Shown here: positions 11,825 to 42,613 of the stretch, piece by piece
How positions within the stretch are numbered: position 1 is the stretch's first letter
Layout of the letters: every line of letters starts with the position of its first letter
Assembly (NCBI GenBank): GCA_026413685.1
Contig: JAOAKK010000001.1
Span: forward strand, 1 to 47,850
Length of the DNA: 47,850 nucleotides
Origin: Candidatus Micrarchaeota archaeon
Lineage (GTDB): Archaea; Micrarchaeota; Micrarchaeia; CAILAH01
Direction of reading: 5' to 3'
Made by a program: the position numbers and the translations under genes
The notes under the pieces: generated by a model
The model's database searches: none
Seen by the model: only the letters and a program-made list of their open reading frames with translations
What the model was told of the DNA's origin: nothing

Positions 11825-12907
11825 TCACCTCGCAAACCTGCCAGCATCCTCAAGCTGCTCTTCAAGCTCAGCAGGCATCCTCGCATATACATTCTTGAAC
11901 ATGTGCGTATAATCACTCCTGAACGCCTCAGCCTCCTCAACAGCATGCTCAACCTCAACAGCCGCCTGCTTTATGATTTTCTTTTCCAGCACCTCGTTCC
12001 ATATCCTTTTTGCTTTTAGGTATTTCCTGAACCTTTCAATTGGGTCTTTCTTTTTCCACATCTCAATCTCATCCTCAGGCATGTACCTTTTTGGGTCATC
12101 AGCAGTTGTATGCATCCCCATCCTGTATGATACTGCTTCTATAAGCGTGGGGCCTTCACCTTTTCTTGCAGCGTCTACTGCTATTTTGGCAGTGTAATAC
12201 ATTGCAAGCACATCGTTGCCATCTGCTTGCACGCACCTGATTCCAGCAGCAATGCCTTTCTGTGCGATTGTTTTTGCAGCAGTCTGCTTTTTGCGCGGGA
12301 CTGAGATTGCCCATTGGTTATTTCTCACAACAAATACCACAGGAGCGCCATAAACACCCGCAAAGTTTAGTGCCTCATAAAAATCCCCCTCAGAACTGCC
12401 CCCATCACCAGTATATGTCATTACAACCTTATTCTCACCTTTATGCTTCATAGCCATCCCTATCCCGGCCGCATGCAGGAAATGTGTCGCTACAGGCACA
12501 CAGACAGGCGTAATGTTAAATTCGCGTGGAAGATGGTTGCCCTCTTCAAATCCCATAAAATACATAAGGAAATACTTGAGGGGCACACCCATAACGATGT
12601 ACATCCCCTGCTCCCTATACGCAGGCACTACCCAGTCATCCTTCCTGAGTGCAAACGATGTCCCTACAGTGATTGCCTCCTCACCCCTGCATGGCGCATA
12701 TGTCAGCATCCTTCCCTGCCTTTGCAAGTTTATGGCTTTCTCATCAAGCACCCTTGCAGTCACCATGCACCTGTAAAGCCCTATGAGCTGTTCCCTGCCA
12801 AGGCCGCCCCGCAAAAGTTCCTTCTCGAGCGCCTTATCAACAGCACCATTCTCGTCAAGCACCTGTATATAATCAACACTGCCAGAGAATACCTTTTTCA
12901 CAGCCAT
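11825..12907 (-). CDS. 2-oxoacid dehydrogenase E1 component, alpha subunit (TPP-dependent)
   Basis: TPP-binding motif GDGGSSEGDFYEALNFA...VVRNNQWAIS. Has its own SD-like GGAGAGGTG and an upstream TATA. Confidence 0.9.
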   Translation of the reverse strand: MAVKKVFSGSVDYIQVLDENGAVDKALEKELLRGGLGREQLIGLYRCMVTARVLDEKAINLQRQGRMLTYAPCRGEEAITVGTSFALRKDDWVVPAYREQGMYIVMGVPLKYFLMYFMGFEEGNHLPREFNITPVCVPVATHFLHAAGIGMAMKHKGENKVVMTYTGDGGSSEGDFYEALNFAGVYGAPVVFVVRNNQWAISVPRKKQTAAKTIAQKGIAAGIRCVQADGNDVLAMYYTAKIAVDAARKGEGPTLIEAVSYRMGMHTTADDPKRYMPEDEIEMWKKKDPIERFRKYLKAKRIWNEVLEKKIIKQAAVEVEHAVEEAEAFRSDYTHMFKNVYARMPAELEEQLEDAGRFAR

Positions 12908-17953: not shown

Positions 17954-18059
17954 GCACAACACCACTCTATTTAGCACCTCTACCATTTTTAAAAGTTTGT
18001 GAAGCAAAAACGCAAAAAAAGTATTTAAGCAACGTTCTCATTTCACCTTTATGGATAAG

Positions 18060-18143
18060 CGCTAGGGGGGAGATTTGAACTCCCGCGGCCTTGCGACCAC
18101 TGGATTAGCAATCCAGCGCCCTACCGGACTAGGCGACCCCAGC
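18060..18143 (-). tRNA. tRNA-Ser (GCU), no intron, no encoded CCA
   Basis: Folded by hand. Acceptor GCUGGGG/CCCUAGC, anticodon arm CUGGA-UUGCUAA-UCCAG, long variable arm UGGUCGCAAGGCCGC, T arm GGGAG-UUCAAAU-CUCCC, discriminator G. Confidence 0.9.
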
Positions 18144-18544: not shown

Positions 18545-18710
18545 TGCAGGGAGCAGGATTTTCAGGATTTCCTGGCAGAGCCCTTTAGGTATACCAAAAG
18601 GGAGTTTGAACCTGCGAAGGCGCTAGGCCACCAGATCTCCCATCACACTTTTGTGATGAAAGCACGGTGCATCTTGAGTCTGGCGCGTTTGACCACTCCG
18701 CCATCCCTGC
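18545..18710 (-). tRNA. tRNA-Leu (CAA) with two introns (canonical 37/38 and T-loop)
   Basis: Hand fold. Acceptor GCAGGGA/UCCCUGC with discriminator A. Anticodon arm CCAGA-CUCAAG|intron 18637-18672 (36 nt)|A-UCUGG. T arm GCAGG-UUCAAA|intron about 18559-18604 (about 46 nt)|U-CCUGC. Mature length about 84 nt with a long variable arm. Confidence 0.8.
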
Positions 18711-27019: not shown

Positions 27020-27176
27020 CGCCCCGGCCGGGATTTTCAGGAAGGGCACCGCCGCGTTCCGAGGTTTGTTTTGCGAAGCAAAACCCCCTGGGAGCGCGAG
27101 GGGCGGATGCGCCTTCACTTCGAACCCGGGTCGCAGCCGTGACAGGGCTGAATGCTATCCGCTACACTACCGGAGC
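27020..27176 (-). tRNA. tRNA-Asp (GUC) with an 85-nt intron in the T-loop
   Basis: Hand fold. Acceptor GCUCCGG/CCGGGGC (U3-G70 wobble), discriminator G. Anticodon arm CAGCC-CUGUCAC-GGCUG. T arm CCGGG-UUCGAA|intron 27034-27118|U-CCCGG. Mature length about 72 nt. Confidence 0.8.
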
Positions 27177-32895: not shown

Positions 32896-33081
32896 AGCCG
32901 AGGAAGGGATTTGAACCCCTCTCTGCCGGTCACTGATGGGGCACCAAAGGTTCCCCCTCGTGTTTTTCTGGCACCGCTCTTTTGGCAGTTGTGTGCGAGA
33001 GCACACAATTCGCAACCAAAGGTTATGACTCCCAAAAGAACGGCTCTGCAGCCGGCCGCATAGCCACTCTGCCACCTCGGC
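32896..33081 (-). tRNA. tRNA-Cys (GCA) with a 115-nt intron at the canonical 37/38 position
   Basis: Hand fold. Acceptor GCCGAGG/CCUCGGC, discriminator U73 (the tRNA-Cys identity base). Anticodon arm GCCGG-CUGCAG|intron 32931-33045|A-CCGGC. T arm AGGGG-UUCAAAU-CCCUU. Mature length about 71 nt. Confidence 0.8.
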
Positions 33082-41742: not shown

Positions 41743-41983
41743 TAATCCATTTAATATGCAATTCTTTAAGCAAAGTTACGTGGCAAACTTGGCCTTTTTA
41801 TACTTTCAGGGAAGTGGCACCTTGCAGTGGCATGCAACCTTACTGCCCTGAGAGGAGGCGAGCGCAAGCCGTTGGGCAACAGCTCTGGCAGGGCAATCAC
41901 ACTGCAGGGTCTCATGGGCGTGGTAATTCACTTTAAAAACTTTCACTTTTCAATATTCATGTCTCCTTTTATTGGTGAGATTG

Positions 41984-42613
41984 ATGGAGCAGAATTTTGA
42001 CCCTAAGAAAGGCACAACCACTGTAGGGTTGGTTGGAAAGGATGGAGTGGTGCTTGCAGCAGACATGCGCGCCAGTATGGGCTATTTTATTGCGAACAGG
42101 GAAGTTGAGAAAATCCACAAGCTTGATGAGCATGTTGGAATGACAATAGCAGGTAGCGTGGGTGATGCGCAGGCGCTTGTGCGCTATATGCAGGCAGAGC
42201 TTAAGCTATTCAGGCTTCAGAACGGCCAGCCAATGCCGGTTAAGGGTGTTTCAACACTGCTTTCAAACATCCTGTTCCAGCAGAAGTTTTTCCCGTTCCT
42301 TGTACAGCTGCTTGTTGCCGGCTATGATGAGAAGGGCGGCTCGATATACAACCTTGACCCGGTTGGTGGTGTCACCACGGAGAAGTGCACATCCACGGGG
42401 AGCGGGTCGCCGACAGCGCTCGGTTACCTTGAGAGTGTTTACAAGGAGGACATGAAGGTTGACGAGCTGCTTCCAATAGCAGCAAGGGCGATTGCAATCG
42501 CAATGAAGCGCGATATTGCAACAGGTGACGGCATAGCCCTTGTCTCTATAACCTCTAAGGGGTACAGGTCGTATTCTAAAGAGGAAGTACAATCTTTACT
42601 TTCTTCCCACTAA
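41984..42613 (+). CDS. psmB: Proteasome beta subunit
   Basis: Short propeptide then the catalytic Thr: KKG|TTTVGLVGKDGVVLAADMRAS. GSGS motif. Confidence 0.92.
   Translation: MEQNFDPKKGTTTVGLVGKDGVVLAADMRASMGYFIANREVEKIHKLDEHVGMTIAGSVGDAQALVRYMQAELKLFRLQNGQPMPVKGVSTLLSNILFQQKFFPFLVQLLVAGYDEKGGSIYNLDPVGGVTTEKCTSTGSGSPTALGYLESVYKEDMKVDELLPIAARAIAIAMKRDIATGDGIALVSITSKGYRSYSKEEVQSLLSSH

Follow-up and report, generated by a model that had tools for sequence, protein, structure and literature searches.

Two transfer RNA (tRNA) genes in the stretch of archaeal DNA analyzed here are interrupted at the same place in the T-loop, and their introns end in an identical 11-nt junction; this raises the question of what such a junction means when it is found in two unrelated tRNAs. 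The stretch (the window, 47,850 nt of contig JAOAKK010000001.1 in Candidatus Micrarchaeota archaeon assembly GCA_026413685.1) is contig C11 of a 609-kb assembly, designated G000, which comprises 49 contigs and is 64% complete. The gene at issue is tRNA-Asp(GUC), which together with its intron occupies 27020..27176 on the minus strand. The gene with which it is compared is tRNA-Leu(CAA) (18545..18710, minus strand), which has a 36-nt intron at position 37/38 and a 46-nt intron at 59/60 (18604-18559). An original prediction, made without database searches, had offered two alternatives, namely that an intron had spread between tRNA genes or that the splicing system imposes the junction. [quoted passage not shown] The junction CCUGAAAAUCC is dictated by BHB geometry for any intron at this site and is structural, not a mark of shared descent; what is new here is the turnover and module sharing of 59/60 introns within a genus, not the junction.

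The interrupted tRNA-Asp gene

The gene extends from G1 at 27176 to the discriminator G73 at 27020, and CCA is not encoded. Exon 1 (58 nt, 27119..27176, minus strand; GCUCCGG...GGGUUCGAA) was delimited from its sequence and its match to the Rfam tRNA model, and reads GCUCCGG UA GUGU AGCGGAUA GCAU U CAGCC CUGUCAC GGCUG CGAC CCGGG UUCGAA. It supplies the acceptor 5′ strand, a D arm with G10-U25, an anticodon arm with the loop CUGUCAC, a 4-nt variable loop, and a T-arm part composed of the T-stem 5′ strand CCGGG (27129-27125) and T-loop residues U54-A59 (27124-27119). Exon 2 (14 nt, 27020..27033, minus strand; UCCCGGCCGGGGCG) contributes U60, the T-stem 3′ strand CCCGG, the acceptor 3′ strand CCGGGGC, and G73. 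Between them lies the G+C-rich 85-nt intron (27034..27118, minus strand), for which a motif-free search returned the same boundaries. When joined in silico, the exons form a standard tRNA-Asp cloverleaf with a 7-bp acceptor stem, anticodon GUC, C38, G73, and G10-U25, the last four of which match the classical tRNA-Asp identity set. ARAGORN calls tRNA-Asp(GTC), and so accepts the spliced product, only once exactly 27118-27034 has been taken out. The exons, coordinates, and intron length proposed originally are thus borne out, with the strings given there being the RNA sense of the minus strand.

Conventional searches pass over the gene. It was missed in the window by ARAGORN at default settings and by Rfam at gathering threshold, and the Rfam tRNA model applied to the 5′ exon alone gave 20.4 bits over 27116-27176. 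Four tRNA genes are present in the window, one of which is recovered by default ARAGORN and two by the Rfam tRNA model.

Bulge-helix-bulge geometry in the T-arm

Splice sites at 59/60 were placed by laying the canonical 37/38 BHB geometry onto the T-arm. The 5-bp T-stem CCGGG/CCCGG forms the outer helix, and intron residues UGAA (27036..27039, minus strand) provide the 3′ strand of a 4-bp central helix by pairing with U54-U55-C56-G57 (27124-27121). The central helix is flanked by a 5′ bulge A58-A59|G (27120-27118) and its counterpart, the 3′ bulge A-A|U60 (27033..27035, minus strand), with the 3′ splice site between 27034 and 27033. In the fold, the 3′ strand CCUUC of the inner helix (27041..27045, minus strand) pairs with GAAGG (27116-27112), and a U-C mismatch (27117/27040) sits between this helix and the bulge plus central helix. 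Folding of the precursor, a check that the prediction had put forward, accommodates a BHB motif at 59/60 when constrained to it, and both the GAAGG/CCUUC pairing and the hairpin noted at that time, UUUUGC-UUC-GCAAAA (27069..27083, minus strand), are present in the minimum-free-energy fold. This hairpin is hairpin 2 of the module described below, and its stem is kept in relatives via changes on both sides.

Since exon 1 and the intron both end in AA, insertion at 57/58, 58/59, or 59/60 would give the same mature sequence, and 59/60 was chosen among the three by BHB geometry. The same geometry accounts for the 11-nt junction, which divides into CC from the inner helix, UGAA as required by the conserved T-loop, AA from the bulge, U60, the conserved C61, and C62. 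Because UUCR, which is nearly invariant, makes up the T-loop strand of the central helix, the 3′ end of the intron has to be YGRA.

In the precursor, the T-stem would act as outer helix and U54-G57/UGAA as central helix, with two 3-nt bulges carrying the splice sites and GAAGG/CCUUC opening the inner helix, so that the whole would be a T-arm copy of the 37/38 anticodon-arm geometry. Canonical archaeal 37/38 introns likewise have a 5-bp outer stem, four loop bases paired to the intron 3′ end, and two 3-nt bulges in which the cut falls behind the second base; they differ in sitting in the anticodon arm, whereas the tRNA-Asp intron sits in the T-arm.

Other classes of intron or intron-borne RNA were considered. 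A self-splicing or homing-endonuclease intron was rejected, as Rfam at gathering threshold found only a signal recognition particle RNA and two tRNAs in the window and no group I or II intron family, and the overlapping open reading frames (ORFs) are spurious frames crossing the gene; at 85 nt the intron has no room for an ORF. Nor does it hold a C/D-box small RNA, since there is no C box and its 3′-terminal CUGA is only part of the BHB helix, and no H/ACA boxes were found in it.

Splicing enzymes

Both activities that processing would call for are encoded in G000. Contig C7 carries a 392-amino acid endonuclease with one N-terminal and two C-terminal tRNA-intron-endonuclease domains that matches PDB 4FZ2 over its full length (E 1.8e-124), and RtcB is encoded on contig C22 (570 bits). 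The structure 4FZ2 comes from ARMAN-2 (Candidatus Micrarchaeum acidiphilum) and represents its epsilon2 three-unit splicing endonuclease, so that G000 has an ortholog of the epsilon2 EndA, whose substrate range is taken here from the ARMAN-2 work (PMC3239211). Intron insertion sites in ARMAN-2 include 59/60 (Fujishima et al., 2011; PMC3239211), and the ARMAN-2 enzyme cuts a 13-nt 59/60 intron of pre-tRNA-Cys in vitro (PMC3239211); a 2025 crystal structure paper confirms BHB and bulge-helix-loop (BHL) substrates (PMC12397907). As cutting at 59/60 by this enzyme is published, the kind of feature seen at the tRNA-Asp locus is already known. In G000, the epsilon2-type endonuclease would be expected to cut both bulges, each after the second base, and RtcB to join the exons.

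A second, small endonuclease-like protein of 150 amino acids is also encoded in G000 (C44:15223-15675; L003:1474-1926, minus strand). It aligns over its full length to the alpha4-type M. jannaschii EndA 1A79 (E 3.9e-8), with a score of 23.8 bits, below the Pfam cut-off of 27, and could be a relic or an extra subunit.

T-loop introns across the genome

A census was made in which all site pairs able to form the central and outer helices were enumerated genome-wide, spliced in silico, and the products run through ARAGORN. To control for circularity, the census was repeated with T-stem complementarity alone, that is, without the motif, before ARAGORN; the same 12 genes were returned with no new ones, and the extras were obvious false alternatives with non-complementary acceptor arms. 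Where ARAGORN misplaced long 37/38 introns, labels were corrected by eye: ‘Ser-GGA’ on C12 became Ile-GAT, ‘Ala-TGC’ on C46 became Val-TAC, ‘Phe-AAA’ on C13 became Pro-CGG, and ‘Stop-TTA’ in the related genome G001 became Gln-TTG. Twelve tRNA genes of G000 have an intron at exactly 59/60, ranging from 29 to 187 nt in length, namely Glu-CTC, Arg-CCT, His-GTG, Ala-GGC, Leu-CAA, Asp-GTC, Ile-GAT (two copies), Gly-TCC, Pro-CGG, Arg-TCG, and Val-TAC. All but tRNA-Asp (11 of the 12 hosts) also have a 37/38 intron, and nearly all of the roughly two dozen tRNA genes recognizable in G000 are interrupted. The 3′ bulge is AA in each of the 12 T-loop introns; at 37/38 it is more varied (AA, AG, AC, TA, CA) and the layout is otherwise the same. 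BHB-constrained folds lie between 0 and 4.3 kcal/mol above the minimum for the 12 introns.

The comparison of junctions across such a census, which the prediction had suggested, answers the question with which we began. All 12 introns end in YGRA-AA|U, and TGAAAAUCC is common to seven of them (9-mer TGAAAATCC). Within the window, an exact search found CCTGAAAATCC exactly twice, at 27031-27041 and 18556-18566; each copy is on the minus strand at the 3′ junction of a T-loop intron, so the identity in junction and insertion site between tRNA-Asp and tRNA-Leu(CAA) was correctly noted. With a 9-mer common to seven introns, two positions are free to vary, giving a probability of 1/16 per pair and an expectation of ~1.3 among 21 pairs. 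As only these two positions remain to be matched, the 11-nt identity is no more than chance would give and is uninformative on descent. Of the two alternatives offered, it is thus imposition by the splicing system that explains the 11-mer.

That the tRNA-Asp and tRNA-Leu(CAA) T-loop introns derive from one transposed intron, with the 11-nt junction as its remnant, is extremely unlikely. They share an insertion site and an exact 11-mer, and sharing of introns among tRNA types is seen elsewhere in the same genome, where the T-loop introns of Glu-CTC, Ala-GGC, and Ile-GAT share 36-103 nt at 99-100% identity. Against such an origin, 9 of the 11 junction bases are common to 7 of the 12 T-loop introns, and beyond their last 6 nt the two introns align no better than chance would have it (z = -0.5, with 362 of 500 shuffles scoring as well). 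A BLAST search of the tRNA-Asp intron against G000 matched only itself, giving no sign of a shared intron within the genome, and the module families differ, the Asp intron belonging to A and the Leu intron to C (see below). Intron spread, the other original alternative, hence finds no support for this pair; it holds elsewhere in the lineage, where modules are shared.

Two observations on individual genes arose from the census. The tRNA-Ile(GAT) pair (C12:~12470-12640 and C42:~90-270) has near-identical exons, one variable-loop base apart, and different introns: 64 versus 48 nt at 37/38, and 31 versus 59 nt at 59/60, the 59-nt one with module B. As C42 is a contig of 617 nt, the pair may represent strain-level intron polymorphism in the sampled population rather than two paralogs. 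In tRNA-Gly(TCC) (C13:~12190-12420), the 37/38 intron is a threefold tandem array of a 42-nt unit, AGCTTCTTTCGGGATGCCTAAAGAAGCTCGCAAGAAAATGTT.

Intron turnover between close relatives

Two genomes of the same genus were available for comparison, G001 and G002, the latter 93% complete in 7 contigs. The tRNA-Asp locus and its G002 counterpart are collinear for 3.1 kb at ~72% identity, and the tRNA-Asp exons are 100% identical. The sole tRNA-Asp detectable in G002 is also interrupted at 59/60, by a 49-nt intron unrelated to the 85-nt one; splicing at 59/60 must therefore work in the genus. No 59/60 intron interrupts tRNA-Asp in G001 or in most other relatives, and in G024, of another family, tRNA-Asp carries a different intron of ~52 nt at this site. 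The comparison of orthologs envisaged by the prediction thus shows conserved exons around an intron that differs in one congener and is missing from the other.

Ten other tRNAs follow the same course. A concatenate of 12 G000 genes was searched against G001 and G002 and the loci retrieved, and the alignments repeatedly end at the T-loop 5′ splice site. Given in the order G000, G002, and G001, the 59/60 intron measures 85, 49, and 0 nt in Asp; 76, 39, and 100 nt in Arg-TCG; 82, 230, and 0 nt in His; 187, 0, and 0 nt in Ala-GGC; 31 or 59, 186, and 102 nt in Ile; 136, 52, and 129 nt in Glu-CTC; 53, 44, and 0 nt in Val-TAC; and 66, 49, and 0 nt in Pro-CGG. For Leu-CAA it measures 46 nt in G000 and 35 nt in G002, and for Gly-TCC 29 and 96 nt in these two genomes. 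Between orthologs, T-loop introns show 12-57% identity, which is chance level, and the 5′ parts, including 37/38 introns, show 55-95%. On these sequence comparisons, the 59/60 site has undergone gain, loss, or re-occupation among species of a single genus.

A young insertion invites the suggestion that the tRNA-Asp gene is a pseudogene, its T-loop inactivated by a palindromic mobile element and tRNA-Asp supplied by a copy outside the assembly. As G001 and several genomes of the same family have an intronless tRNA-Asp, the insertion is young in evolutionary terms; copies of module A are also found outside introns and in antisense, and the assembly is 64% complete; no second tRNA-Asp was found in this incomplete assembly. 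An inactivated gene would hardly be expected to retain exons 100% conserved relative to G002 amid flanks at ~72%, and the insertion has exactly the position and 3′ end that a BHB needs, as in 11 other tRNA genes. The only tRNA-Asp detectable in G002 is interrupted at the same position, endonuclease and ligase are both encoded, and interruption is the normal state in a genome in which nearly every tRNA gene has an intron. A pseudogene is accordingly very unlikely.

A functional, spliced tRNA-Asp gene with an exchangeable intron body remains the preferred reading, and several points weigh against it. The minimum-free-energy fold of the precursor is not a BHB, the constrained fold of T-arm plus intron lying 2.8 kcal/mol above the local minimum, and a G-U pair in the central helix together with the U-C mismatch at the start of the inner helix makes the motif slightly relaxed. 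We infer both splicing and the exact cleavage sites, and exchange of cassettes at the DNA level is deduced from distribution patterns, with no recombinase, reverse transcriptase, or target-site duplication identified. As G000 is 64% complete, it may also have a second, intronless tRNA-Asp.

A different arrangement was encountered in G008, of the same family and another genus, in which a 63-nt ‘intron’ in tRNA-Asp (L008, G008:C45) was rejected because no BHB could be drawn. The T-loop there is one base short (UUCGAU), the 3′ exon follows directly, and an exact second copy, TCCCGGCCGAGGCG, lies 63 nt downstream; this looks like a duplication of the 3′ exon, such as an integration scar or an assembly artifact.

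Shared intron modules

The first 32 nt of the tRNA-Asp intron contain a 27-nt core, GGCGCAUCCGCCCCUCGCGCUCCCAGG (27087..27113, minus strand), which comprises most of a first hairpin and an invariant linker, CUCCCAGG, and defines the module termed A. Exact copies of the core are found in the T-loop introns of tRNA-Val(GAC) of G002, tRNA-Gln(UUG) of G001, and tRNA-Gly(CCC) on two metagenome contigs. Variants with two changes occur in G005 in Arg-UCG, in Tyr-GUA, and, at 37/38, in Met-CAU, each with 2-3 tandem units, and a further two-change variant is found in G006, in antisense and outside an intron, adjoining tRNA-Ala in the rRNA spacer. The hosts of module A thus belong to seven tRNA types (Asp, Val-GAC, Gln-UUG, Gly-CCC, Arg-UCG, Tyr-GUA, and Met-CAU). 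When aligned, seven copies show two hairpins joined by the invariant linker, with four pairs kept via changes on both sides. Across genomes, then, the core is shared by different tRNA types, and orthologous tRNA-Asp genes have another intron or none. Among 201 genomes of the class the core is confined to this family, and a collection of viral contigs held no exact match to it; a viral origin was rejected.

Two further modules were recognized. In G000, the T-loop introns of Glu-CTC, Ala-GGC, and Ile-GAT have module B in common at 99-100% identity, and in G002 it fills the His intron with 3.5 tandem copies. Module C relates the tRNA-Asp intron of G002 to the Leu-CAA intron of G000 (z = 6.1), and its further members are the Arg-TCG intron, the 37/38 introns of Gly-TCC and Arg-CCT, and the Ala-UGC intron of G006. 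Several blocks of 15-31 nt are shared by canonical introns of G000. Tandem amplification was also seen in the Ala-GGC T-loop intron (two copies of a 44-nt unit) and in several introns of G002 and G005.

T-loop introns would on this evidence behave as exchangeable cassettes that move at the DNA level; it is from the antisense copies outside introns and the tandem arrays that DNA-level movement is deduced, and both speak against reverse splicing alone. Only those insertions for which the host completes a BHB would be retained, and the near-identical flanks enforced by splicing (GGUUCRAA, YGRAAAUCC) may favor exchange between T-loop sites. We tentatively propose, as a possibility somewhat short of even, that the 59/60 introns of the Micrarchaeum family are occupied by small mobile two-hairpin DNA/RNA modules (A, B, and C) that pass from the T-loop, or at times the anticodon loop, of one tRNA gene to that of another, multiply in tandem, land in antisense in tRNA leaders, and survive only where a BHB is completed, with GGUUCRAA...YGRAAAUCC serving as the landing or exchange site. 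On this proposal, the invariance of the core across species may point to a trans-acting factor that recognizes it.

The intron could also be kept for a second task. Besides being spliced out with the intron, the two-hairpin module might be a functional RNA or protein-binding element, for example an intron RNA that persists as a circle, or a hairpin for processing or recognition that tRNA leaders also use. Three species of the genus and another metagenome organism carry the 27-nt core unchanged, whereas syntenic DNA is at ~72%, the pairing of hairpin 2 is kept via compensatory changes, and copies lie beside tRNA genes outside introns, the 17-mer of hairpin 1 being 3 nt upstream of tRNA-Leu(CAG) and the whole module next to the G006 tRNA-Ala. 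Recent horizontal spread would account for the core identity as well, however, and there is one copy per g1 genome, each in a different host tRNA. Module A is missing from G003, G004, G007, and G008 (61-89% complete), and the way its copies are distributed is more in keeping with an element that is selfish or has recently spread than with an essential RNA. There is also no Rfam match, no C/D or H/ACA box, and no complementary target of at least 12 nt in G000. An additional role is on balance unlikely, if less so than either a pseudogene or a common origin of the Asp and Leu introns. The particular idea of a guide RNA found no antisense match of at least 12 nt to the 27-nt core in G000, the only long match being the 17-mer beside tRNA-Leu(CAG).

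The copies outside introns merit description in their own right. Hairpin 1 has its 17-nt exact copy, AGGGCGCATCCGCCCCT, outside the window at C22:36201-36217; it is in antisense orientation in the spacer that follows a neighboring tRNA, 3 nt upstream from the tRNA-Leu(CAG) 5′ end. The whole of module A is placed in a like manner in the 16S-23S spacer of G006 (L032), where it lies 3 nt upstream of tRNA-Ala. Hairpins upstream of tRNAs may have a role in leaders or may belong to an element that inserts in either orientation. In G005 (L033; G005:C8, ~41900-42318), approximately the last 30 nt of tRNA-Met(CAT) and ~60 nt of trailer recur ~150 nt downstream, close to the end of the contig; an integrated element may have left a duplicated attachment site there, or the repeat may stem from assembly.

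Relation to known tRNA intron systems

The closest precedent is provided by the 59/60 introns of ARMAN-2 (PMC3239211; Hirata et al., 2012, PMC3488258; 4FZ2), which agree with those described here in position, enzyme type (epsilon2), and taxonomic neighborhood; in ARMAN-2, as in G000, most tRNA genes are interrupted and several have two introns. The ARMAN-2 test substrate was a 13-nt hBH-type intron in tRNA-Cys, whereas the intron here is 85 nt long, lies in tRNA-Asp, and has a nearly strict hBHBh′ form. Unlike in the ARMAN-2 reports, at least 12 genes of G000 have a 59/60 intron, from 29 to 187 nt. The literature examined on the ARMAN-2/Micrarchaeum lineage holds no report of shared intron modules, tandem amplification, or replacement between congeners.

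Transposition of tRNA introns has been described in Thermoproteales (Fujishima et al., 2010, Mol Biol Evol 27:2233, via PMC4033280 and bioRxiv 10.64898/2026.10.13.758758). According to these summaries, related introns occur there, as here, in different tRNA types, at canonical and non-canonical positions, with insertion limited to BHB-capable sites. Thermoproteales belong to the Thermoproteota and possess an (alpha-beta)2 endonuclease, whereas the present organism is a DPANN member of the Micrarchaeota with an epsilon2 enzyme. Sharing here is by short hairpin modules (a 27-nt invariant core, units of ~44-66 nt) that are often in tandem, antisense copies occur outside introns, and the tRNA-Asp intron has no paralog in its own genome. 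Intron gain was called unresolved for Asgard archaea in a 2026 preprint (bioRxiv 10.64898/2026.10.13.758758), and the positive example has so far been mainly Thermoproteales. If true, the proposal of mobile modules would provide a second, independent instance of Thermoproteales-like intron transposition, in a DPANN lineage and with a different endonuclease. Three congeneric genomes whose exons are the same or nearly so and whose 59/60 introns are present, absent, or swapped, together with a 27-nt core in seven tRNA types, offer a compact natural system for the study of archaeal tRNA intron gain.

There are also practical consequences. About half of the tRNA genes of G000 are recognizable only after removal of a T-loop intron, and without this step the tRNA complements of Micrarchaeota genome bins look falsely incomplete. 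Because the BHB dictates them, identical junctions at non-canonical sites are a poor marker of intron kinship.

Gene setting and other tRNA genes of the window

The tRNA-Asp gene lies within a 208-nt gap that has a plus-strand ORF on either side, and ~30 nt upstream of it is an A+T-rich stretch, CTAATAAATATT, that is TATA-like by sequence. Of the four tRNA genes in the window, only tRNA-Ser(GCT) (18059-18143) is intronless; besides tRNA-Asp and tRNA-Leu(CAA), tRNA-Cys(GCA) (32896-33081, minus strand) is interrupted, by a 37/38 intron of ~115 nt.

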